A DNA stretch of 64,000 bases, taken from an uncultured Clostridia bacterium (lineage in GTDB: Bacteria > Bacillota > Clostridia > TANB77 > CAG-508). Each line of letters begins with the position of its first letter. Position 1 is the stretch's first letter. A model generated the notes under the pieces. It searched no databases, was not told where the DNA came from, and saw only the letters and a list, made by a program, of their open reading frames with translations. The position numbers were made by a program, and so were the translations under genes. The stretch covers positions 256,969 through 320,968 of the forward strand of contig CALXET010000001.1 in the NCBI GenBank assembly GCA_944387405.1, written 5' to 3'. Of this stretch, positions 8,285-23,400 are shown piece by piece.

Positions 8285-10945
8285 TTAAGCTGCATCATCC
8301 ATTTTTTCATCACTTGGATTACTACTCTCATCAGTAGTTTCTGCACTACTTTCAGAATCACTACCATCTACACTCTCTACTTTATCTGTATTAGTACTTG
8401 TTGAACTATCTTCATTTTGATTTTCTTGAGAAGAATTTTCATTACTATCTATATTATCCTCAATTTTATTTTCATTTGCATTTACATCATCACTATTATT
8501 GTTATTATTTGATGGCTTTTCTACTATAACTTCTTCTATAACTTTATCATCATTTTCTTTTTTCTCATTTTCAGTATTCTTACTTTCATCTACAGTATTT
8601 TTATTTACAGCTTTATTATTTTCATTCTTTTTTCCTTTATTTTTTGATGAATGATATGTACACTCAGTAGGTTCAGTACCTTTTATATAATATTCCTCAT
8701 ATGTATCTCCACAATATTTAGTAGCTTTTTTACCAGTTTTACTGCATACAGTACATGTAACTACTTTTTTAGGCTTTTCAAATCTTTTACCTTCAAGTCC
8801 TTCATGAATATCATCCATTACAGAAGACCATATTAAACCTGCAGGATTTCTTTTATTAAAATTAATTGTTTCATTTATATCAAATCCAAACCAAGTTGCT
8901 GCAGAATAATAAGAAGTAAATCCACATAGCCATCTATCATAATTTTCATTTGTAGTTCCAGTTTTAGCTGCAACATCCATATTTTTCATTTTGCAATATG
9001 TAGCTGTACCATATGTTCCATTAACAGGTTCTGTTAATAATTCTTTTACAACATATGCCGTTTCTTTTGAAAATACTTTCTTCTTTTTTTGTTTACTCTT
9101 AAGAACATTTTTCCCTTCCTGAGTTTCAATCTTAGTATAAAAAGTTGGTTCTATGTACTTACCATCATTTGCGATAGTTGCATATGCCGCAGCTGTTTCT
9201 AATGGTGTCATACCAGAATCTAAACCACCAAGTGCTAAAGCTAAGTTTTCATCTTTTTCTGTTAAAGTAGTAATACCCATCTTTTTCAAATATTTTATCG
9301 ATGTTTTAGGAGTAATCTTTTCCATCATTTTAACAAAAGGAATATTTTGAGATGACTCTACTGCTCTTCTTACAGTAATTTCACCTAAATATCCATCATA
9401 ATTTGTTGGATGGTAAGGCTCTTCTGATCCATCATTAAAGTCAGTTTCTTCATCTACAAAAGTAGTAGATGCTGTAAATATTTTCTTTTCTATTCCTGGT
9501 ACTAAAATAGCTAGTGGCTTAATCGCTGAACCTGTTTGTCTTTTAGCCTGTGTTGCTCTATTGAATCCTCTAGAAGTTTCTTTTTCTCCAAGGCCGCCAA
9601 CACATCCTACTACATAACCTGTCTTATTATCAATTACTACCATTGCAGCTTGTGAAGTTGCACCATCTGTATTTTTTGAATCTAATAAATACATTTTTTT
9701 ATTAAATTCTTTTTCCATTGTTTCTTGAATAGAATTATTTTGTGTACTATATATTTTTAAGTTTGCCATATATAAATAGTTTGTAGCAAATTCTTCAGAA
9801 ATATGCTTTCTTTCTGAAATATCTTTTATAACTTCAGATATTAATGCATCAGTATGATATGAATAAACATCAGGTTCTTTTTCTACATCAATATCGCCTC
9901 TTTTAAAATCTAGTCCTTTTTCTACTTCTTCTTTTGCTTTATTATAATCTTCTTGTGAGATATATTTAAGTTCAAGCATTTTGTTTAAAACTGTATTTGT
10001 CCTTTTCTTAATTTTTTCAGAATTATCTTCTCCTTCTCTAAATGGATTATAAGCATTAGGAGCATGATTTATTCCAGCTAAAAATGCACATTCTTCAAGA
10101 GACAAATCTTTAGCATGTTTTGAAAAATAATATTCAGCACCAGTTTCAACCCCATAAACATTTGGCCCTATATAAATAATATTTAAATATGCTTCTAATA
10201 TCTCTTCTTTTGACATAGCAACTTCTAATGCCATAGCTTTAGTCCACTCATCTACTTTACGAGTGACAGTTGCTTTAGTATTTCCAGTTAAATTTTTTAC
10301 TAATTGTTGAGTTATTGTACTTCCACCAAATGAAGCTTTTCCAAATGAAAATATATAATTTAGAGTTGCAGCACCTGTTCTTTTAATATCTACTCCTCCA
10401 TGCTTATAAAATCTTTCATCTTCTATCGCAACATATGCATTTTTTAAATTATCCGGCATCTCTTCAAAAGAAATATTTTTTCTATTTCTTTCGCTTCCTA
10501 TTTCACCAATTTTCTCCTCTGAAGTATCAACAATAATAGAAGGAGCATTTTTTATCATTTGTTTTGCAATACTTGTAAATCTTATAAGTGAAATAATAAA
10601 TAAAATAAATAATATTACAAGAACTATAATTAATACTCTAATAAGAATTTTAATTATCATTTTCTTTATTCTTGTTTTAGTATCTAGCTCTTCTTGCATA
10701 TTACCATCTATATCATTTTTATCATTTTTCTTTTTAGATGATCTTTTATTTATCTTTCTACTTGTAGCTCTACTATTTCTTCTAGAAGTAGAAGCTCTTT
10801 TTTCTTGAGAATCATTTATAATATCATCAATCTCATTATTTTTCCTTCTTCTTACTCTTTCTACATATTCTTCTCTACTTAGTCCTTCAGAAGAATGTCT
10901 TGATCTATTTTTTCTTCTATTTCCAGTTTTATTCACATACATCAA
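8285..10945 (-). CDS. Penicillin-binding protein 1A (class A PBP: transglycosylase + transpeptidase) with basic N-terminal and acidic low-complexity C-terminal extensions
   Basis: Contains GT51 motifs (EDERFYKHGGVD, GGSTITQQLVKN) and transpeptidase motifs (SAIKP, KTGTT). One TM helix. Confidence 0.9.
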   Translation of the reverse strand: MMYVNKTGNRRKNRSRHSSEGLSREEYVERVRRRKNNEIDDIINDSQEKRASTSRRNSRATSRKINKRSSKKKNDKNDIDGNMQEELDTKTRIKKMIIKILIRVLIIVLVILFILFIISLIRFTSIAKQMIKNAPSIIVDTSEEKIGEIGSERNRKNISFEEMPDNLKNAYVAIEDERFYKHGGVDIKRTGAATLNYIFSFGKASFGGSTITQQLVKNLTGNTKATVTRKVDEWTKAMALEVAMSKEEILEAYLNIIYIGPNVYGVETGAEYYFSKHAKDLSLEECAFLAGINHAPNAYNPFREGEDNSEKIKKRTNTVLNKMLELKYISQEDYNKAKEEVEKGLDFKRGDIDVEKEPDVYSYHTDALISEVIKDISERKHISEEFATNYLYMANLKIYSTQNNSIQETMEKEFNKKMYLLDSKNTDGATSQAAMVVIDNKTGYVVGCVGGLGEKETSRGFNRATQAKRQTGSAIKPLAILVPGIEKKIFTASTTFVDEETDFNDGSEEPYHPTNYDGYLGEITVRRAVESSQNIPFVKMMEKITPKTSIKYLKKMGITTLTEKDENLALALGGLDSGMTPLETAAAYATIANDGKYIEPTFYTKIETQEGKNVLKSKQKKKKVFSKETAYVVKELLTEPVNGTYGTATYCKMKNMDVAAKTGTTNENYDRWLCGFTSYYSAATWFGFDINETINFNKRNPAGLIWSSVMDDIHEGLEGKRFEKPKKVVTCTVCSKTGKKATKYCGDTYEEYYIKGTEPTECTYHSSKNKGKKNENNKAVNKNTVDESKNTENEKKENDDKVIEEVIVEKPSNNNNNSDDVNANENKIEDNIDSNENSSQENQNEDSSTSTNTDKVESVDGSDSESSAETTDESSNPSDEKMDDAA

Positions 10946-11337
10946 TCCTTTGTACTTAAATATTCATCTATAAGTTTTAATTTTTCTTTATCTTTTTCTC
11001 TTTTATTTTCTATAATCCATTTTCTTTGTATTTCTAATTTTAAAACATTAAAACCATCTATAACTTTAATGTCATTTAAATCAAAATCTTCAACTTTTAA
11101 TTCTATATTATTAGAAAGTTCATATAAATTTTCCATCTTAGTACTCTTTACTAGATTATATTTTTCTTTTAATTTGTTAAATAATTCTGGTTTTATTTTT
11201 AAGTCAATATCTTCAGTATCATTTTTTAAACCATACATTAAGTATGATCCTCCAGCAATTATACAAAACTTATCTTTAGGAAAACTTAAACTTTTAACAA
11301 TTTCTATAAATTCCTTTTTGTTCATTAAAAACCTCAA
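10942..11337 (-). CDS. Small protein with Pol-beta-type nucleotidyltransferase-fold signature (GGS…DIDL)
   Basis: Motif IAGGSYLMYGLKNDTEDIDLKI matches hG[GS]x9-13DhD. Its stop overlaps the PBP start (ATGA), which implies co-transcription. Confidence 0.35.
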   Translation of the reverse strand: MRFLMNKKEFIEIVKSLSFPKDKFCIIAGGSYLMYGLKNDTEDIDLKIKPELFNKLKEKYNLVKSTKMENLYELSNNIELKVEDFDLNDIKVIDGFNVLKLEIQRKWIIENKREKDKEKLKLIDEYLSTKD

Positions 11338-11459
11338 TTTATTTTAAAAATTATATTTAACATATTTTTTAATTTTTATTTATTTCAAATAAACTTATTA
11401 TTATTCGAAATTTTTATTTTATATTATTGTATACTAACTTATAATCTTTTTCAACAAAA

Positions 11460-11481
11460 CCGGCGGGGTCTTTTCCCCGCC
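11460..11481 (-). terminator. GC-rich intrinsic terminator of the GC-rich cassette gene
   Basis: ccggcgggg-tctttt-ccccgcc hairpin, followed on the minus strand by a U-rich tail. Confidence 0.7.
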
Positions 11482-11511
11482 ATAAAATAGTTTTGGTTAC
11501 TGTCTAATTTA

Positions 11512-12027
11512 CTATAAGAAGACAGCGCAAGAAATTTCATGCATCCTAGTTTCTCCATGCTCAAAAGTTAACGCAATCATGGTCCCCGGCATTTCCTCAA
11601 GGTTTACCCATGTAGCATCTGTTGTAAATGGTTTTAACCCATTTTCGTCAGTAATGCTTGCTTGCAAATAGTGAAAATTTCTTGTAGTGCGAATTGTCAT
11701 TTTTGTTCCAGGATATTTTCCCAGATACAGCTTTTTTGTTTTCGCACCGTTGTCTATGCGGCTATTTCCTCCTATTCTTTCTAACCGGAAGATCTTATTT
11801 TCATCAAGATCTATAAGATAGTATGACTGTTCAATCAAAACCGTTTTATATGTTCCTTTAATATATTCTACAAGACACATAGTCCTTACAGTAGTAGGAA
11901 CATATCCGATTTTTACATAGTCATCCCCTTTTTCTAGAATCTTGAAGTCTTTAAGCCCCATACCGTCTTCACATACAAGCAAAATGCTTTTTTTGCCATT
12001 TGTTTTTAGCATTTCAATCCGGTACAT
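11512..12027 (-). CDS. Hypothetical protein in a GC-richer (~38% vs ~25%) self-contained cassette
   Basis: RBS ggaggtaag precedes ATG 12025-12027. Own TTGACA-18-TATAAT promoter (12068-12097). GC-rich terminator downstream. No recognisable motif. Confidence 0.6.
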   Translation of the reverse strand: MYRIEMLKTNGKKSILLVCEDGMGLKDFKILEKGDDYVKIGYVPTTVRTMCLVEYIKGTYKTVLIEQSYYLIDLDENKIFRLERIGGNSRIDNGAKTKKLYLGKYPGTKMTIRTTRNFHYLQASITDENGLKPFTTDATWVNLEEMPGTMIALTFEHGETRMHEISCAVFL

Positions 12028-12067
12028 ATTCTTACCTCCTAATATTTTTTCCAAAGTATTATATAAC

Positions 12068-12097
12068 TTTTTGTCTTATTCTGTCAATTTTTTGCTA
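12068..12097 (-). promoter_or_regulatory. Consensus sigma-A promoter (TTGACA-18-TATAAT) for the GC-rich cassette gene
   Basis: Reverse-complement reads ttgacagaataagacaaaaagttatataat. Confidence 0.55.
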
Positions 12098-12113
12098 TAA
12101 CTAAAAATATACA

Positions 12114-12161
12114 CATAAATACTAATTTAAATTAGTATTATGTGTATATTTATTTTAAGTA
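12114..12161 (-). terminator. Long inverted repeat / terminator after the deaminase-like gene
   Basis: ~23-bp arms aaaatatacacataaatactaattt / aaattagtattatgtgtatattt, followed by a T-run on the minus strand. Confidence 0.5.
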
Positions 12162-12220: not shown

Positions 12221-14722
12221 TTAAACAATCTCTGGATTATCATTTATTATAGTATCTACAATAGTCTCATCTACTTTAAATGGAACTACATATCCTCCTA
12301 ATGAATTTGCCTTATCTTTTAGAGCTGTTACATCTGAATTTACATATATTCTAGCTTTTCCTTTACCATTCTTTGCTTCTTGAACTAAATTTGAAACTGG
12401 TGAATTACCATCAAAAGCTACTACGATAGATTTTCTTCTCTCAAATATCTCATAATTAAAGCTTTTATATATACCGAAACCTTCACTTTCATTAGATATA
12501 CAAACACCATTTAACTCATCTTCACTTATAAGTCTATTTTTCTCTTCTTTAGAAATGGCCTTTGGAATAATTGCATCAATCTCTAGATTTTTGTTATACT
12601 CTTTTGCAATATCTACTAGAGCTTTTTCATAACCTTGCATTTTATGTCCAACTACAAAATAAACTTTATTACTATCTACTTTATTTACTAATTCTTTAAT
12701 AGTGTTTAATCCACTTTCATTAATTACTGTTTTTCTATGTTTTGTATTAAAACTTCCACCAGCAATTATTATAGGAACTTTATCTATTGGAAGTGCTTTT
12801 ATTTTATTTTTTAATTCTTCTTCTGAGTTTAATTTATTATTAACTCTTAAGTCAATCTTTGGAACTATTTTTTTATATTTTTCTTCTAAATCTAATATAG
12901 TTTCTCTAATACTTCTTCCGTTACATATTTTTTCGAATTTCTTTTTCTTCTCTTCAAAATAATCGTCATTATAAGATATAATCTCATCTTCAACTTTTCT
13001 CATCTTTTCAAAATCATCATTTGAAAGTCCTATTAAATTTTGAAGACTTAATTGTTCATCTATTGTATCTACACCATATATTCCGCACCCATCTGTTCCT
13101 TGAACACATTTAATTCCATTTTCTAAATATTTTTTTAATGGATGATGCTTTAAATTAGTCAAGTTATTTAATCTAACATTTGACGTAAATTGGAACTCTA
13201 ATACTACTCCTGTCTCTTTCATCTCACATATAAGTTCTTTTCCTTCTTTTGAATTAAGATTAGCAGTATATAAACCATGACCTATTCTAAATCTAGGGAT
13301 CTTTTTCCCAGGGCTTACAGATTCTTTTACACACTCAATAGATTTTTTTACATTATCTCTTAATGAATCATTCTCTCCGGCATGTATTCTTATAGTAAAT
13401 CCCTCATCTTCATTATTTGCATATTTAACTAATTCTTTAATCATTGGTTTTAGTTCTGATATATCATTTATTTCTTCTCCTATAAAATCAGAACCTACTA
13501 CATACGGATCTTTTGCAACTGCATATAAGGCAACTAAATTATCTGCTAAATAATTGTCTGTAACTCCTTCTTCTTTTTTTATTGTTAAAGGAATTCTTCT
13601 AAGTCCCATTAAAAACCTAATTTTCACACCTGTATCTTCTTCGATTTTTGGAAGAACATCATGTGCATCTTCTAAAACTTTTATTGCGGGTTCTCCTAAT
13701 TTATTTAAATCTGTATCTGTAATTTCAGTATAATATATTCCTTGTTTTTTATATTCTCTTGCTATCCATAAATACTTATCTTGTCTTAATGTATTATTTG
13801 CATACTTACTTTTAGGCTTTGCATCTTCAAGCATTTTAAATAGATAATTTTTAATATCTTCTTCAGGAATTTTTTCAATATCTTCTTTATTTATTTTAAT
13901 TAAATCATCCGAAGTTTTTCCTTTACAAAATACATATCTATATAAATATAATTTTTCTAAGTTTGTAAATACTGCTTGGCCATCTTTTAATATTACTAAA
14001 CTGTTTCTTATTTTTGATATATTTTCTTTTGCATTTTCTATATTATTTAAAATTAAATCTGCAAAATTGATAAATGTATTATCATCAATTCTTCTAGTTA
14101 AATATTTTCCTGTAAGTCCACAATTTTCATATTCTTTTTCTACAGGAATCCTTCTTTTTAAAATTATCTCTTCTTGCTTTTTAGTAAGTTTTAAATTTAA
14201 TTTTTTAATATAATATAAAGGATATCTAAGCTGCCTTTTAATCCCCAGTGCAATTAAAACATCTGGTGACAAATTAGCATTCATATGTGTATGTAAATCT
14301 GTTCTAAATTTAAGTTTTTTAAGAACATATGATTTTAAGATAGTTTGGTGAATATTCAATTTATAATCTTTCGTCTGAGACATTAATGTTTTAGATATAA
14401 CAGGAATTCTTGCTTTAACTTCAATTCTATCATTATATATATTGGCAATTTTCATTCCTCCTAATCTTAAAATATAAACCTCCTCATTATCTCCATTTAA
14501 AGATGCTGGTATTATTCCTTTAATTATTTTCATGTCGTTTTCATCTTTTTCTATTGGAAGATTACATATCTTTGCTATATTTGATATTAAATTCCCTGTT
14601 TTATGATTTGGTGTACGTATTATAAAACAAAGCTCATCTATATTTTCTGTCTTATATAAATGAACTTGTATGTCTTTTTCTTTATCTAAGTAAAATTTAT
14701 TAAAATATATTAATTTTTCCAT
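12221..14722 (-). CDS. Large multidomain adenosine/AMP-deaminase-like protein (amidohydrolase core) with extra N- and C-terminal domains. The C-terminal domain may be a LOG/SLOG-like Rossmann fold.
   Basis: The core carries DLHTHMN (HxH), IRIHAGEN (HAGE), FRIGHGLY (RIGHG), EFQFTSNVRL (≈vCPiSNv.l) and VQGTDGCG (≈TDDP). The ORF is intact at 833 aa. The C-terminal ~200 aa reads IIIAGGSF…VVGHKMQG…VVAFDGNSPVSNLVQEA. Confidence 0.6.
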   Translation of the reverse strand: MEKLIYFNKFYLDKEKDIQVHLYKTENIDELCFIIRTPNHKTGNLISNIAKICNLPIEKDENDMKIIKGIIPASLNGDNEEVYILRLGGMKIANIYNDRIEVKARIPVISKTLMSQTKDYKLNIHQTILKSYVLKKLKFRTDLHTHMNANLSPDVLIALGIKRQLRYPLYYIKKLNLKLTKKQEEIILKRRIPVEKEYENCGLTGKYLTRRIDDNTFINFADLILNNIENAKENISKIRNSLVILKDGQAVFTNLEKLYLYRYVFCKGKTSDDLIKINKEDIEKIPEEDIKNYLFKMLEDAKPKSKYANNTLRQDKYLWIAREYKKQGIYYTEITDTDLNKLGEPAIKVLEDAHDVLPKIEEDTGVKIRFLMGLRRIPLTIKKEEGVTDNYLADNLVALYAVAKDPYVVGSDFIGEEINDISELKPMIKELVKYANNEDEGFTIRIHAGENDSLRDNVKKSIECVKESVSPGKKIPRFRIGHGLYTANLNSKEGKELICEMKETGVVLEFQFTSNVRLNNLTNLKHHPLKKYLENGIKCVQGTDGCGIYGVDTIDEQLSLQNLIGLSNDDFEKMRKVEDEIISYNDDYFEEKKKKFEKICNGRSIRETILDLEEKYKKIVPKIDLRVNNKLNSEEELKNKIKALPIDKVPIIIAGGSFNTKHRKTVINESGLNTIKELVNKVDSNKVYFVVGHKMQGYEKALVDIAKEYNKNLEIDAIIPKAISKEEKNRLISEDELNGVCISNESEGFGIYKSFNYEIFERRKSIVVAFDGNSPVSNLVQEAKNGKGKARIYVNSDVTALKDKANSLGGYVVPFKVDETIVDTIINDNPEIV

Positions 14723-14864
14723 ATATACTTTTATCCCTTCTACTTAATTATTTTTTCTGCTAGTTAATTTAATATTTTATCATATTTTTAATATAATTCC
14801 AATAGATTTTAGTAAAAAAGTTTAGTTTATGTAAACAAAAGAAGTCTAATAGATAGAAGTAAAT

Positions 14865-19599: not shown

Positions 19600-20814
19600 T
19601 TATTTAACATATTCATCTAAAGTAGAATCAATTGTATCTATTATAGCTTGTTTATCCATATCTTTTCCTATGAAAACAAGTTTAATAATTCTATCTCCTA
19701 CTTTATAATCCCATTCTTTTTCAACATCAGGATTTAATCTAATTATTTCTTCTTGCTGATCTTTTGGAAGAGTAGCTATCCATGCTCCTCCTTCATAAGC
19801 TTGTACTTGTTTTCCAGCTTGTTCAAATATATATGACATATCATTTTCATCAGAAAACCAAAGTATTCCTTTTGCTCTTATTATTGATTTTGGCATATTA
19901 CAAGCGAATTTATCAAATTTTTCTTTGTTTACTGGTTTTCTTGAAACATATACAAATGAGCTTATTCCATATTCTTCAGTTTCTGAATCGTGATGATGGT
20001 GATGGTGATGAGAATGTTCATGTTCATGGTCATGATCGTGTTCTTCGTTTTCATCTTCATCATCTTCTAAATCAGCATTTATTTCTTCAAGCCATCCTGC
20101 AGTAGTGCAAGCTTCTTCAAAATTAAATCTCTTAGTATTTAATAATTCACTTATATCTACTTTACTATAATTTGTTTCAATTATTTTTGCTTTTGGTTGT
20201 AATTTTTTAATAATAGCTCTTACTTTATTTAGTTCATCTTCAGATACTTCATCAATTTTATTTAAAACTATTGTTGTGCAAAACTCAATTTGTTGAATTA
20301 ATAAATTTGCAATATCTTCTTCATCATTTATATTTTCTTTTTCTAAGGCATCTCCTGCACCAAATTCAGATGCAATTCTTAAAGCATCTACTACAGTAAC
20401 TATATTATCTAGTTCGCATAACTTTGGAAGTCCATATTCTAAAGTTGACTCTCCAAGTGCTGTTATAGTTTGTGCTATTGGAATAGGTTCGCAAATTCCG
20501 CTAGCTTCAATTAAAATATAATCAAAATTTCTAGTTTTAATAAGATCTACTATTTGTTGCATTAAATCTACTTTTAAAGTACAACATATACATCCATTTT
20601 GAAGTGGTACTAAACTATCATCTTTTTCTTTTACTATACCACCTTTTCCAATTAAGCTAGCATCAATATTTACTTCTCCTATATCATTTACTATTACAGC
20701 TACTTTATAACCTTGTTGGTTATTTAATATATGGTTTATTAATGTTGTCTTTCCTGATCCCAAATATCCTGTAAGTAATGTAATTGGTACTGTTTTAATA
20801 TCATTTTTGTTCAT
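19600..20814 (-). CDS. CobW/COG0523 family G3E GTPase (ZigA/YeiR-like zinc metallochaperone) with a His-rich tract
   Basis: GYLGSGKTT P-loop, GCICCTL (CxCC), and a HDHDHEHEHSHHHHHHHD stretch. Located in the Zur locus. Confidence 0.85.
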   Translation of the reverse strand: MNKNDIKTVPITLLTGYLGSGKTTLINHILNNQQGYKVAVIVNDIGEVNIDASLIGKGGIVKEKDDSLVPLQNGCICCTLKVDLMQQIVDLIKTRNFDYILIEASGICEPIPIAQTITALGESTLEYGLPKLCELDNIVTVVDALRIASEFGAGDALEKENINDEEDIANLLIQQIEFCTTIVLNKIDEVSEDELNKVRAIIKKLQPKAKIIETNYSKVDISELLNTKRFNFEEACTTAGWLEEINADLEDDEDENEEHDHDHEHEHSHHHHHHHDSETEEYGISSFVYVSRKPVNKEKFDKFACNMPKSIIRAKGILWFSDENDMSYIFEQAGKQVQAYEGGAWIATLPKDQQEEIIRLNPDVEKEWDYKVGDRIIKLVFIGKDMDKQAIIDTIDSTLDEYVK

Positions 20815-20892
20815 TTAACTTTCCTCCTATTTATTAAACATATGTATTATATAATCATTTTTATTTTTTATCAAACAAAATTTCTACTAATA

Positions 20893-21399
20893 CTACTGCT
20901 CTTCACAAATAATATTTGATACCAATGTAAATATAATAAATAAAACTAAATTTGCAATTACGATCATTGCTCCTGCACTAATATTATATATGTATGAAAA
21001 ATATAATCCAAATATAAATGCAATAACTGAAACTACAGCTGAACTAATTACAACTTTTTTAAAAGATTTAAATAATCTCATAGAAGTAAGAGCCGGGAAT
21101 ATTATTATACTACTTATTAAAAGTGTTCCCATAAGTCTCATTCCTACAACTATAAGTACAGCTGTAAGTATTGCAATTAAATATGTATAGAAATTAGTAT
21201 TTAATCCATTAGCTTTTGAAAAATCTTCATCAAAAGTTATTGAAAATATTTTTCTATAAAAAATTAAAAATAGTGATATTACTATAATGCTTACAATTAT
21301 ACTTAATATTACATCACTTTCTGTCATTGCTAATATACTACCAAACATATAATTATATACATCTGTATTCATTCCGATTAGAAGCAGATGTAAAAGCAA
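20893..21399 (-). CDS. znuB: Zinc/manganese ABC transporter permease (ABC-3/ZnuB family), C-terminal fragment of a frameshifted gene
   Basis: DVYNYMFGSILAMTESDV matches the conserved ABC-3 mid-region. It overlaps the N-terminal fragment in another frame around 21353-21399. Confidence 0.65.
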   Translation of the reverse strand: MLLHLLLIGMNTDVYNYMFGSILAMTESDVILSIIVSIIVISLFLIFYRKIFSITFDEDFSKANGLNTNFYTYLIAILTAVLIVVGMRLMGTLLISSIIIFPALTSMRLFKSFKKVVISSAVVSVIAFIFGLYFSYIYNISAGAMIVIANLVLFIIFTLVSNIICEEQ

Positions 21400-21718
21400 C
21401 TCCTATTGCTAAACTACTACTTGCAATTAAAGCAATTGCACTATCTGTATTTATTTTTTTATTACTTCCTATTTTAAGAAGAATAATTGAAGCAATTATT
21501 ACAACCGGAATAGATATTATCATTGGGCTCCATCCCATAACTACAGAAACTGTAAGTATTCCAAATCCTACATGTGATAATCCATCACCTATCATAGAAT
21601 ATCTTTTAAGGACTAAACTTACTCCAAGAAGAGCTGCACAAAGGCTTACTAATATTCCTACAATTAAAGCTCTTCTTATGAAAGTATATTGCATCATTTC
21701 TATTATTACATCAATCAT
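21353..21718 (-). CDS. znuB: ZnuB-family permease, N-terminal fragment (true start MIDVIIEMMQYTFIRRAL at 21718)
   Basis: N-terminus typical of ABC-3 permeases. RBS ggggag precedes the start. Stop at ...NRNEYRCI after the frame change. Confidence 0.65.
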   Translation of the reverse strand: MIDVIIEMMQYTFIRRALIVGILVSLCAALLGVSLVLKRYSMIGDGLSHVGFGILTVSVVMGWSPMIISIPVVIIASIILLKIGSNKKINTDSAIALIASSSLAIGVAFTSASNRNEYRCI

Positions 21719-22280
21719 TTTTCTTTTCTCCCCCTTCCAAAATAAATTTAGAAGAAAGATCATCAAAAACTTTCTTTCCATTTTTAATTTCAATTATTCT
21801 ATCTGCATATTTTACTGCTCTATCTATATCATGTGACACCATAATAATTGTTAAATCTTTCTTTTTATTTAACTCTTTTAACATTTTATATATTTGTCTT
21901 GAAATTACTGGATCAAGACCATTTGTTGGTTCATCTAATACTAAAATATCTTTAGAACTACAAATCGCTCTTGCAATTAATACTCTTTGCATTTGTCCAC
22001 CAGATAAGTCTCTAAAGCATTTTTTTCTGATATCATATATATTTAAATCTTGCATTGCTTTTTTAGAAACTTCTTTATCTTCTTTTGAATACCAAATCTT
22101 AAAAATATTATTAGTCGTAGTACCACTTATTACAACTTCTTCTATTGAAGCTGGAAAATTTTTTTGAATATCATTTTTTTGTGGTAAATATCCAATTTTA
22201 GCATTTCTTATAATTTCTCCTTTTTGTGGTTTTATAAGTCCAACTATTGATTTTATAAGTGTACTCTTCCCGAGATCCAT
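21711..22280 (-). CDS. znuC: Zinc ABC transporter ATP-binding protein, C-terminal fragment (frameshift inside Walker A)
   Basis: Begins KSTLIKSIVGL (second half of Walker A). Also has the LSGGQ signature and Walker B ILVLDEPT. Confidence 0.7.
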   Translation of the reverse strand: MDLGKSTLIKSIVGLIKPQKGEIIRNAKIGYLPQKNDIQKNFPASIEEVVISGTTTNNIFKIWYSKEDKEVSKKAMQDLNIYDIRKKCFRDLSGGQMQRVLIARAICSSKDILVLDEPTNGLDPVISRQIYKMLKELNKKKDLTIIMVSHDIDRAVKYADRIIEIKNGKKVFDDLSSKFILEGGEKKND

Positions 22281-22395
22281 TTTCTCCTACAATACACAAA
22301 AAGTCGCCCTTTTTTACTTTTAAGTTAATATCTTTTAATACTTTATCTTCTATTGAATAGTCAAAAGATAAGTTTTTTACTTCTATCAAATTCAT
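22198..22395 (-). CDS. znuC: ZnuC N-terminal fragment
   Basis: …GDFLCIVGENGS then out of frame. Observed ggatctCgggaagagt versus expected ggatctgggaagagt (GSGKS). Confidence 0.7.
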   Translation of the reverse strand: MNLIEVKNLSFDYSIEDKVLKDINLKVKKGDFLCIVGENGSREEYTYKINSWTYKTTKRRNYKKC

Positions 22396-22425
22396 TTTTT
22401 TTATTTATTCCTCCAAATAAATTTT

Positions 22426-23400
22426 CTAATTTAAAGCTTGCTTTAAAACTTCTGCATTTCTTTTCATTAAGCTTACATATGTCTCTCCATTTTCAAAATC
22501 CTCTTTAGATATATTATGAAGAGTTTGTATCTGCATCATTTTTGCTCCCGTTTCTTCTGATAAAGTTTTAGCAACTTTGCCATTACTTAACTCTATATAT
22601 AGCACAACTGGAATATTCTCTTTATTTATAAGATCTACTAAATATGCTACTTGACTACTAGTAGGAACAGTCTCTTCTGCACATCCATTAAAAGCAGCAC
22701 TTACTTCTAAACCAAATTCTTCTATAAAATATAGCATAGGCATCTTGTCCCCAAAAACAAGTCTTTTTCTTTTGCTATTATCTACTATCTCTTGTATTTC
22801 ATTTTTTACACCATTAATCTCATTTTTATAATTTTCTGCATTTTCTTTATAGAAAGATTCATTTCCTTTATCTATATTTGATAATCCTGATTCGATAAAG
22901 TCTATCATTTTAGTAGCATTTTCTAAAGAAGTCCAAATATGTTCATCATATTCTCTTTCATCAATTTCTTTATTTTCAGAATGGACATGATTATGACTAT
23001 CTATAGTACCATCAATTTTTACTTCTTCTAATAGTTCAATACTATCTATTAATCTTAAAGTTTTAACTTCTTTTGGTAAGTTTTCTACTACCTTAGTACT
23101 CCATGGCTCTAATGTACCACCAACATAAATAAATAAATCTGCATTTTCAATTTGAATTATATCTTGTGCACCTGGTTCAAATCCATGTGAATCTATTCCA
23201 GGTCCTAATAGAAATATAAGATTTACTTTGTCTTTTGCAATTTGTCTTACAAAATCATATGAAGAAAATGTTGTTACAACAACTGTTGGTTTAGAATTAT
23301 CCTCATATTTATTTATATTATCTGTTTTAAACATTAAATAAATAACTCCAATTAATATTATAATAAGTAATATTAATGAAATAATCTTTTTTAATCTCAT
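22426..23400 (-). CDS. znuA: Zinc ABC transporter substrate-binding protein (ZnuA/AdcA family)
   Basis: N-terminal signal/TM. Cluster-9 SBP architecture with a His/Asp/Glu-rich loop (DSHNHVHSENKEIDEREYDEH). Confidence 0.8.
   Translation of the reverse strand: MRLKKIISLILLIIILIGVIYLMFKTDNINKYEDNSKPTVVVTTFSSYDFVRQIAKDKVNLIFLLGPGIDSHGFEPGAQDIIQIENADLFIYVGGTLEPWSTKVVENLPKEVKTLRLIDSIELLEEVKIDGTIDSHNHVHSENKEIDEREYDEHIWTSLENATKMIDFIESGLSNIDKGNESFYKENAENYKNEINGVKNEIQEIVDNSKRKRLVFGDKMPMLYFIEEFGLEVSAAFNGCAEETVPTSSQVAYLVDLINKENIPVVLYIELSNGKVAKTLSEETGAKMMQIQTLHNISKEDFENGETYVSLMKRNAEVLKQALN

Follow-up and report, generated by a model that had tools for sequence, protein, structure and literature searches.

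The window, as we call the whole 64,000-nucleotide stretch of DNA that was analysed, contains a gene for an uncharacterised variant of an adenosine deaminase (ADA)-type enzyme, which the source databases annotate only as 'adenosine deaminase'. The protein combines an ADA barrel with a C-terminal domain of the SLOG superfamily. The gene behaves as a core gene that a lineage of uncultured gut Clostridia has inherited vertically, and not as a mobile defence gene. We give about even credence to the proposal that it specifies a constitutively encoded ADA-family deaminase, which probably acts on adenine nucleotides and is gated by a ligand of the SLOG domain.

Gene and domain organization

The reading frame lies exactly where a preliminary description of the region had placed it, and its composition is in line with the flanks. 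At about 25% G+C, stop codons are expected at about 9% of random codons, and therefore the ORF of 833 codons is no chance frame (chance probability estimated at about 1e-33). In the order of the polypeptide, the modules are the N-domain, the ADA barrel with an insert, a coiled linker and the SLOG domain (Table 1). The extra domains that had been suspected on both sides of the ADA domain are thus seen in the predicted structure, as a beta-rich N-domain and an alpha/beta C-domain.

Table 1. Features of the ADA-SLOG gene and its product (window coordinates)
Feature	Position	Strand	Basis or remark
Coding sequence, complete	12221..14722	(-)	833 aa + stop, ATG start, listed ORF
N-terminal beta-rich domain, aa 1-104	14411..14722	(-)	Predicted structure, pLDDT ~70-88
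Conserved linker motif IP.I.KTLMSQTKDYK, aa 105-137	14312..14410	(-)	Conservation; pLDDT <50
First ADA barrel strand, TDLHTHMN (H144/H146), then helices, aa 138-185	14168..14311	(-)	Profile alignment
~135-aa insertion, mostly helical, aa 186-320	13763..14167	(-)	Substitutes profile positions 48-77
ADA catalytic core, aa 321-567	13022..13762	(-)	Alignments to solved ADAs, Foldseek, invariant residues
K/E-rich helical linker, aa 568-644	12791..13021	(-)	Predicted helices 568-600, 605-617
SLOG-superfamily C-domain, alpha/beta, aa 645-833	12224..12790	(-)	SLOG-type Rossmannoid fold
Intrinsic terminator, 19-bp AT-rich hairpin then U5	12103-12149	(-)	Sequence and folding energy
Two overlapping candidate sigma-70-type promoters	14774..14835	(-)	Consensus matches only
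Shine-Dalgarno-like GAAGGG	14735..14740	(-)	12 nt upstream of ATG, read from sequence

According to the promoter, ribosome binding site and terminator predictions, the gene forms a monocistronic unit. The candidate promoters, which match the consensus as TTTACA-18-TAAAAT and as TTGGAA-17-TAAAAT with a TG, sit downstream of the hairpin and T-run that come after the upstream P-type ATPase gene. The long-stem terminator attributed to the gene in the preliminary description is confirmed by a folding energy of -20 kcal/mol (z = -5.54), which none of 200 shuffled sequences equalled. It was overlooked by a simple G+C-based scan. An upstream riboswitch or other Rfam element was detected neither in the window nor at 8 diverse loci; the T-boxes that the Rfam scan of the loci returned belong to pheS.

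The N-domain has predicted strands at residues 5-13, 18-24, 30-36, 65-75, 81-87 and 90-95. It has no match in Pfam, NCBIfam or PADLOC, and a Pfam CARF match was sought without success in residues 1-135. Among 77 species, 21% of its columns are invariant, and dN/dS is 0.05 for residues 1-137. Kinship with PGDYG, modules A and B or the 157-aa protein, which are partner modules of the distant relatives, was rejected, with hhalign probabilities all below 1%. In the linker that follows, P107, I109, K111, M114, Q116, T117, K118 and Y120 are invariant in the 77 species, and the motif is seen again as LMAQT in relatives of 30% identity. The K/E-rich linker in front of the SLOG domain is the least conserved part of the protein (6% invariant columns in the 77 species, dN/dS 0.17).

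ADA domain

The assignment of the central domain is borne out by Pfam A_deaminase (PF00962), which matches in two stretches with E=4e-19 and 69.3 bits against a cut-off of 27. The HxH end aligns by itself to profile positions 3-47, and the only other Pfam match is a weak one to Amidohydro_1. The predicted structure retrieves bacterial, Plasmodium and mammalian ADAs in Foldseek with a probability of 1.0, and is weak around the HxH strand (pLDDT <50 for residues 105-145).

All hallmark segments named in the preliminary description are found in the expected order. The core motifs are VGSDFIGEE, RIHAGE, RIGHG, FTSN and GTDGCG.YG. In the HMMER alignment to Plasmodium ADA, IRIHAGEN pairs with SVHAGE, FRIGHGLY with RIGHG, EFQFTSNVRLNN with EVCPISNVLLNN, and VQGTDGCGIYG with VNSDDPGMF. 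From the last pair it follows that D544 is the metal-ligand Asp, and that G545 stands in place of the second Asp of the TDDP motif. This is the sole change among the hallmarks, and G545 is invariant even at 30% identity. The residue that is replaced corresponds to Asp296 of mouse ADA, which contacts the purine.

H144 and H146 are conserved in all sequences that cover the HxH region. Together with H447-E450, H482, D544-G545 and the GxDxxGxE equivalent (G410, D412, G415, E417), they are also invariant in relatives of about 30% identity. From these conserved metal and catalytic residues, the ADA core is predicted to be a catalytically intact aminohydrolase. The insertion after the first barrel strand carries the invariant block KDGQAVFTNLEK.Y.YR..F, in which K246-K257, Y259, R262 and F265 do not vary among the 77 species; R262 is invariant in the distant relatives as well.

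SLOG domain

The C-domain has a SLOG-type Rossmannoid fold, with the motifs IIIAGGSFN, GHKMQGYEK, AIIPK, GIYKSFNYEIFERR and AFDGNSPVSNLVQEAKNGKGK. Its best structural matches are the MoCo carrier protein, which is non-enzymatic, and TRPM domains. None of the Pfam, NCBIfam, PADLOC and PDB sequence models detects the domain, a word search returned fragments of the same family only, and a profile search against the PDB gave only non-significant matches to IMPDH. A profile of the domain itself finds only 183 representatives among 1.84 billion sequences, and each long one that was scanned also has an ADA domain.

Two loops are invariant, AGGSFN behind strand 1 and G692..G697.E699 behind strand 2. 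With their conserved small or polar residues, they most likely form a nucleotide-binding site. The SLOG domain has the top share of invariant columns in the protein (34% in the 77 species) and a dN/dS of 0.09, and judged by these values it is functional.

Distribution and gene context

The gene is present in at least 110 species of the genome database, all of them uncultured gut Clostridia. Database searches gave more than 5,600 matches, of which the best 120 are full-length (788-853 aa) and 67-99% identical. The identity of the protein correlates with the identities of Ffh, PheT, HtrA and a neighbouring small deaminase (r = 0.72-0.87), at the conservation level of PheT, and dN/dS is 0.10 for the gene, compared with 0.03-0.20 for its neighbours.

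The gene context is identical in 14/14 independent contigs that encode a 99%-identical protein. In the window, the neighbours are PBP1A, a P-type ATPase, SufBD/SufC, CobW, ZnuA, FBA and two small ORFs. As conserved partners they were discarded, since only one near-identical genome has them too. Elsewhere, the gene is found with pheST, with ylxM-ffh-rpsP-rimM-trmD or with HtrA, and the contexts are stable yet lineage-specific. There is no universal partner gene, and the most frequent neighbour cluster occurs in 20/81 loci. A small CDA-fold deaminase (TadA/GuaD-like) is located directly upstream in 16/81 loci.

The flanking ORFs of 180 and 131 aa have no identity in Pfam, NCBIfam or PADLOC. The preliminary description had placed the gene beside a horizontally acquired cassette. 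Such a cassette is not evident; both small ORFs are ordinary in composition and keep the same order in the 14 contigs. Its suggestion of a novel purine enzyme is still a live reading. The loci surveyed show no consistent linkage of the gene to a purine-salvage operon. Homologs that are universally syntenic with purine-salvage genes and lack the C-domain are not what is found, and the closer relatives all keep this domain. Searches of the phage and viral collections INPHARED, IMG/VR and BFVD gave no relatives, and the search of the PLSDB plasmids gave ordinary add genes only and no full-length relative.

Proposed function

In our preferred reading, the ADA-fold centre of a three-module enzyme would convert an adenine-containing compound to its hypoxanthine form. 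Rather than plain adenosine, its substrate would be AMP, ADP, ATP or a related adenine nucleotide. The TDGCG motif, the lid of about 135 aa with its invariant Arg/Lys block and further invariant arginines suggest a phosphorylated substrate and an enzyme other than an ordinary Add. For the substrate class, it is the conserved basic residues and the motif change that point this way. The SLOG domain, which lacks the LOG hydrolase motif and keeps the glycine-rich loops, would bind a nucleotide-type ligand and gate the deaminase allosterically; a sensor is its most likely role. The gating logic would be akin to the ATP/GTP control of eukaryotic AMP deaminase, or to the control of Cad1 by cyclic oligoadenylates via CARF. 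Physiologically, the enzyme may adjust or interconvert the adenine nucleotide pool.

Distant relatives

Relatives of about 30% identity occur in conserved multi-gene modules. Some lie beside a plasmid relaxase (Mob_Pre) gene and TnpV, others adjoin resolvases and cas9-cas1 (type II), and the partner domains are shuffled, being encoded in some cases by neighbour genes and in others within fusions. Downstream of one distant relative lies a Nudt16-like Nudix gene, and NUDT16 is cited as an IDP/ITP-clearing enzyme (PMC11645235). Because the distant relatives sit in shuffled multi-gene modules, the ADA-SLOG architecture is probably at work in conflict or mobile systems too. As their contexts look mobile or conflict-related, a conflict function may even apply to the whole family, the gut Clostridia clade included.

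A broader and speculative reading, which we consider possible rather than likely, is that the ADA-SLOG proteins form a class of their own, a new one, among ligand-gated nucleotide deaminases, and that the distant relatives and their partners (PGDYG, Zn-phospholipase-C-like, ~157-aa and SecA-like proteins) constitute an undescribed conflict or mobile-element system. The gut Clostridia protein would then be a fixed regulator of the adenylate pool, as a bacterial counterpart of AMP deaminase. Alternatively, it would be a resident ATP-to-ITP switch under the control of a nucleotide messenger that the SLOG domain binds. A literature search on ADA+SLOG or PGDYG found no paper.

Alternative functions

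The protein could be a single-protein immune sensor-effector. Its SLOG domain would respond to a signal of infection, for example an isomer of cyclic ADP-ribose or some other nucleotide messenger, and switch on the deaminase, which would convert ATP/dATP to ITP/dITP and cause growth arrest, in the manner of Cad1 and RdrB. The sensor-plus-ADA layout parallels that of Cad1, the modules of the distant relatives, shuffled beside Mob_Pre/TnpV or resolvases/cas9-cas1, are typical of conflict systems, and the sole PADLOC match is to CARF_ADA (E=3.7e-8, to 1e-11 in relatives). However, this match is confined to residues 319-560 and to ADA positions 338-556 of the model. At 80 loci of this clade, the 8 kb to each side of the gene contain no signal-generating partner (TIR, cyclase, Cas10). 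The gene has a fixed position within lineages, conservation and dN/dS values like those of housekeeping genes and a presence in at least 110 species, and it is without relatives in the phage, plasmid and viral-contig collections. An immune role of the gut Clostridia protein is therefore unlikely.

Alternatively, the protein could be a bifunctional catabolic enzyme, with an ADA domain that produces IMP or inosine from AMP or adenosine and a SLOG domain that works as an N-glycosidase of the LOG/PpnN type, so that hypoxanthine and ribose-5-phosphate become available for salvage or fermentation. SLOG domains can also be enzymes, and hence a second catalytic activity may be present. Read as sequence, the AIIPK motif and the loops that follow strands 1 and 2 are similar to the CGS, GGGxxG and GVIP motifs of LOG, and the domain is extremely conserved. 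Yet the LOG profile (PF03641) finds no match in it even at E values up to 10. In a manual register, the loop at the position of PGGxGTxxE reads DGNSPVSNL, with N756 for the Arg of the RK motif of LOG, and this loop differs between distant relatives. The non-enzymatic MoCo carrier protein and the TRPM domains as top structural matches also speak against a glycosidase. Of the LOG/SLOG-like C-terminus in the preliminary description, the SLOG fold thus stands, but the LOG part, with the catalytic motif lost, does not. A bifunctional enzyme appears quite improbable.

It is also conceivable that the protein is an ordinary purine-salvage Add, and that the extra domains serve only for oligomerization or stability. 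This would agree with the name in the databases, and with the Salmonella and Vibrio Add enzymes as the closest solved profile relatives (E=2e-17). In contrast, the score against canonical Add (NCBIfam TIGR01430, PRK09358) is 55.9 bits and fails the equivalog cut-off of 216.55, and the other NCBIfam Add equivalog models are also far below their cut-offs. Where Add has TDDP, the protein has an invariant TDG.G. Moreover, purifying selection acts on its roughly 500 extra residues as strongly as on the core, and the ligand-loop residues of the SLOG domain are invariant. We consider this explanation very doubtful.

By analogy with eukaryotic ADAL/MAPDA, the enzyme might sanitize N6-modified adenine nucleotides (m6AMP, i6AMP, t6A-derived), the SLOG domain helping to recognize the modified AMP as LOG enzymes do with cytokinin nucleotides. 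ADAL and MAPDA turn up in the fold and profile searches (8qch, 6iv5, 6ijn). With Gly instead of Asp beside the metal ligand, the purine pocket would be altered, and the conservation pattern suits a housekeeping role. However, bacterial and Plasmodium ADAs outscore ADAL, and the context has no pointer to RNA turnover. Such a role is very improbable.

Significance

More than 100 species encode the enzyme, whose rate of evolution is as low as that of a tRNA synthetase subunit, and it is thus probably important for the physiology of its hosts. These are uncultured Clostridia with small genomes that live in the gut of humans and farm animals. Should the SLOG domain gate the deaminase, the protein would be a third sensor-plus-ADA design beside Cad1 and RdrA/RdrB, and the first found to be fixed as a core gene. 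It would also offer a tractable handle on the ligands that SLOG domains sense, and a case of a conflict-type architecture recruited to housekeeping, or of the reverse. Finally, the variant TDG.G active site, together with the large insertion that forms the lid, could give the enzyme a substrate specificity that is new to the ADA superfamily.

Comparison with known systems

RdrB of the RADAR system is also a large ADA-family protein (about 800-900 aa) with insertions, and the preliminary description had drawn the analogy to a defence effector. The analogy is not supported. RdrB is absent from the PADLOC matches (E up to 1), the PDB sequence matches and the Foldseek matches. The window contains no adjoining gene for the AAA+ ATPase RdrA, and there is no conserved partner in 80 loci. 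More generally, neither the window nor the 80 homologous loci contain a defence neighbour (RdrA, CARF, CRISPR, TIR or other) that would point to a defence island, and the gene behaves as a core gene. Membership in RADAR (RdrB/RdrA) and in Cad1 systems (CARF and type III CRISPR-Cas) was rejected. KomA of the Kongming system is an ordinary PF00962 deaminase with the metal-ligand residues His15/His17 near the N-terminus, and SLOG is unmentioned in its description (10.1101/2024.12.20.629578). Kongming membership was rejected as well, as the HAM1-like KomB and SIR2 KomC neighbours are absent at the loci surveyed.

Cad1/CAAD of type III CRISPR systems (9c67, 9ebt) shares with the ADA-SLOG protein the fusion of a Rossmann-like sensor to an ADA domain. 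Cad1 turns ATP into ITP once cA4 or cA6 is bound (PMC11645235). The sensor of Cad1 is a CARF domain and N-terminal, whereas the putative sensor here is a SLOG domain and C-terminal. The sequence similarity to 9c67 is marginal (E=0.097-0.12). Unlike Cad1, the ADA-SLOG gene behaves as a core gene, and cas genes are found neither in the window nor near the gene in the focal loci.

The functional model proposed here is that of eukaryotic AMPD, which is likewise a large member of the ADA superfamily, has additional regulatory regions and is controlled allosterically by nucleotides. The fold comparison, which gave nothing for RdrB, did return weak matches to AMPD2 (8hub, 8hu6). However, the ADA-SLOG protein has no AMP_deaminase Pfam match, and the regulatory parts are unrelated. 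With bacterial and Plasmodium Add (PF00962; 6n9m, 6ii7), it has in common the barrel, the HxH, GxDxxGxE, HAGE and GHG motifs and the metal-ligand Asp. In contrast to Add, it is 2.5 times longer, with the N-domain, the insertion of about 135 aa and the SLOG domain, and has an invariant Gly for the second Asp of TDDP.

The SLOG superfamily comprises the MoCo carrier protein, TM1055/TIGR00725-like proteins, TRPM LSDAT, DprA, LOG/PpnN, ThsA-SLOG and YpsA. A precedent is YpsA of Bacillus subtilis, from a SLOG protein family that is mostly conflict-linked but has, in Firmicutes, a branch 'institutionalised' for housekeeping (PMC6459960). YpsA itself consists of SLOG without a deaminase domain, and acts in cell division. 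In comparison with the superfamily, the clade described here is tiny, does without the LOG catalytic motif, and is tied to an ADA domain in all long members scanned.

Gene and transcription signals

The reading frame of the ADA-SLOG protein, an adenosine-deaminase-type (ADA) enzyme with a C-terminal SLOG domain, appears in the ORF listing on the minus strand, with the same coordinates and length as in the preliminary description. As the G+C content of the genome is only ~25%, a frame of 833 aa is not due to chance. The gene is a transcription unit of its own, with the long-stem terminator that had been proposed for it located 3' of the stop codon. No riboswitch was found upstream, and comparison of the whole 64-kb window with Rfam returned zero families at the gathering score, with no tRNA, riboswitch or leader.

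The two small ORFs downstream match nothing in Pfam, NCBIfam or PADLOC, and among the genome loci they recur only in a near-identical one (L057). The smaller one and the start of PBP1A share 4 nt. On the other side of the gene lies a probable zinc-homeostasis cluster, in which the CobW-family GTPase carries a His-rich stretch (HDHDHEHEHSHHHHHHH).

Features of the window and of loci with relatives (L-numbers denote genome loci)
Feature	Position	Strand	Description
ADA-SLOG coding sequence	12221..14722	-	ORF, 833 aa
Hairpin and T-run			after upstream P-type ATPase gene, 5' of promoter-like sites; read from sequence
Two promoter-like sites	14774-14835		upstream of ADA-SLOG gene
Ribosome-binding site			GAAGGG, upstream of ADA-SLOG gene
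Terminator	12103-12149		19-bp AT-rich hairpin and U5; dG -20 kcal/mol, z -5.5
Promoter	12087..12058		perfect TTGACA-18-TATAAT; serves the 180-aa ORF
Two small ORFs	10942-12054	-	180 aa and 131 aa, between ADA-SLOG gene and PBP1A
Zinc-homeostasis cluster (probable)	19600-23400	-	CobW-family GTPase, ABC-3 permease, ZnuA-type binding protein
Window context			upstream CobW, SufC, SufBD, P-type ATPase; downstream PBP1A, FBA
Context 1			upstream pheS-pheT; downstream ylxM-ffh-rpsP-rimM-trmD-rplS
Context 2			upstream HtrA, M23 peptidase, small CDA-fold deaminase
Basic module	L082:1-4063, L083:1-8603, L084:3-4019, L085:226-4453, L123:57-3559, L128:2157-5899, L147:7419-15556		upstream gene ~300 aa (about 170-340 aa), ADA-SLOG gene, downstream gene ~157 aa (150-157)
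Shuffled partner domains	L120 (978 aa), L127; L129, L134, L135 (~aa 800-975); L081:7082-7750, L114, L130:7084-7587, L128:4769-5344		

Domain architecture

The Pfam A_deaminase match of the protein is far over threshold (E=4e-19), and the ADA active site is intact. The HxH strand aligns with the start of the Pfam profile, and the HAGE, GHG and (C/F)xxSN elements and the metal-ligand Asp all pair with those of solved ADAs, while Gly545 stands where TDDP has its second Asp. The closest profile match is bacterial Add (E=2e-17); Cad1, ADAL and AMPD are far weaker, RdrB is absent from the matches, and Foldseek with a full-length model (pLDDT 77.9) agrees. Relative to ADA, there is a ~135-residue insertion after strand 1 (aa 186-320), containing an invariant block (KDGQAVFTNLEK.Y.YR..F) that AF2 does not place confidently.

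The C-terminal domain, which no Pfam model matches, has a SLOG fold, and the preliminary description was right to suspect one. This identity follows from the relatives listed for the domain (MoCo carrier protein, TM1055, the N-terminal domains of TRPM2/3/5/7/8, DprA, ShosA, LOG, YgdH, PpnN and ThsA-SLOG), and from weak LSDAT-type SLOG Pfam matches in the homologous region of a distant relative, P0387. A profile of the domain retrieves 183 representatives among 1.84 billion proteins, mostly fragments, and every long representative that was scanned has an ADA domain. The SLOG domain also has the highest share of invariant positions among the domains. Residues 1-104, at the N-terminus, make up a beta-rich module for which no relatives were detected; the linker after it (KTLMSQTKDYK) is very conserved. 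The protein is best classed within the ADA superfamily, as an enzyme whose SLOG domain represents a new clade and whose N-domain is likewise new.

A core gene in gut Clostridia

Relatives occur in at least 110 species of the genome collection. All 80 loci retrieved come from uncultured Clostridia-type (Bacillota) genomes, and every named sample source is human or animal gut. Identity to the query is 55-68%, except in a circular 1.8-Mb MAG, where the match reaches 96%. The neighbourhoods are housekeeping ones, which differ between sub-lineages and are stable inside each; the gene order of the window is kept in 14/14 independent contigs with a 99%-identical protein. Pairwise identity correlates with that of the adjacent Ffh, PheT, HtrA and small deaminase (r = 0.72-0.87), and its level is that of PheT (81.5% against 84.7%). 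The dN/dS ratio against the closest genome is 0.10 (neighbours, 0.03-0.20), with constraint in every domain, and no full-length relative was found in plasmid, phage, IMG/VR and BFVD collections. All modules are strongly constrained. Taken together, these data match what is expected of a core gene passed on vertically rather than of a gene in a defence island, and the suggestion that the protein is a defence effector is not supported for the focal clade.

The only recurrent neighbour of nucleobase-related function among 81 loci is a 153-aa CDA-fold deaminase, which in 16 of them (e.g. L002, L004, L005, L023) is the next gene upstream, with the same orientation. It matches dCMP_cyt_deam_1, with a sub-threshold TadA match, and by eye its motifs (GGPFGAVI...HAE...CEPCPMC) resemble those of the guanine deaminase GuaD.

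Shuffled partners in distant relatives

Representatives at ~30% identity retain the whole ADA-SLOG architecture and lie in conserved modules; in the basic form, no partner protein can be assigned to a family of Pfam or PADLOC. The module continues in L083 and L147 with a SecA-like P-loop protein (886-911 aa), another copy of the 157-aa gene and a gene of ~131-136 aa. The upstream partner is built of two halves, one of which is Zn-phospholipase-C-like (MPGFVIHLAIAGEH...). Each half also stands alone, and the Zn-phospholipase-C-like one is elsewhere N-terminally fused to the ADA protein. PGDYG (PF14083), of which the papers of the literature searched make no mention, likewise occurs as free neighbour proteins or as C-terminal fusions. 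One module locus (L082) also has Mob_Pre, TnpV and DUF6414. In six loci (L121, L122, L124, L125, L130, L155), ADA-SLOG-like genes lie beside a serine resolvase and a 233-aa gene (e.g. L121:5984-14275), with a cas9-cas1 locus on the other side in L121, L122 and L124. Conflict or mobile systems typically show such shuffling of partners, and the basic module with its partners may be a so far undescribed multi-gene system. Within 8 kb, these partners are absent from the window and from 79/80 focal loci; the exception is a homolog of the 157-aa partner ~1.1 kb downstream of the ADA-SLOG gene (L076:11618-12049).

A group of ~900-aa ADA-like proteins, with no SLOG domain found by the SLOG profile, is encoded divergently from an adjoining NAPRTase (L146, L148, L150:4353-10112, L151, L158), with NAD synthase beside it where the contig reaches far enough. 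These neighbours suggest a link with NAD salvage.

P0387 (1016 aa, with ADA and the weak LSDAT-type SLOG match) has a sub-threshold Nuc_deoxyri_tr2-like match at its C-terminus. A Nudt16-like Nudix gene lies 3' of the P0387 gene on the same strand (L081:11213-11737); NUDT16 is cited in PMC11645235 as clearing IDP and ITP. Some 1 kb upstream of the P0387 gene there is a homolog of the 157-aa partner, 80 aa in length.

Two loci are irregular. In L085:1246-4453, ADA-SLOG is split into overlapping ORFs of 300 aa (N-domain and HxH) and 773 aa, owing to a frameshift, pseudogene formation or assembly error. In L153:3-12836, a ~4,278-aa open frame with ADA-like and PGDYG-like (aa 3294-3424) regions represents a giant polyvalent protein or else an artefact of assembly.

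Possible function

Five arginines (R262, R369, R376, R445, R479) are invariant down to 30% identity and, with the TDG.G motif, lead us to suspect a phosphorylated or otherwise non-standard substrate. At about even confidence, we propose that the substrate would be an adenine nucleotide or derivative, that the SLOG domain would gate catalysis by binding a nucleotide-type ligand, and that the protein would thereby serve purine nucleotide pool control.

Among the alternatives, an immune switch like that of Cad1, the CARF-ADA protein of type III CRISPR systems, is unlikely. A bifunctional deaminase and N-glycosidase is slightly less probable again. The LOG hydrolase signature PGGxGTxxE is absent, the loop there reading DGNSPVSNL in a manual register and varying in distant relatives, in contrast to the invariant Gly/Ser loops that follow strands 1 and 2; a putative ligand-binding role of the SLOG domain is therefore favoured over LOG-type catalysis. 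That the protein is an ordinary Add with decorations appears doubtful; all NCBIfam 'adenosine deaminase' equivalogs are far under cut-off. Least probable is a sanitiser of modified AMP.

In the searchable literature, with the 2015 survey of SLOG systems left out, no account of the ADA-SLOG family was found. It deserves attention for its abundance in gut bacteria, for the way it parallels Cad1 and for the partner modules, so far unexplained, that accompany its relatives. For another SLOG protein, YpsA, an 'institutionalised' branch has been proposed in Firmicutes (PMC6459960), and the focal clade, too, looks like an 'institutionalised' branch of its family in Bacillota.
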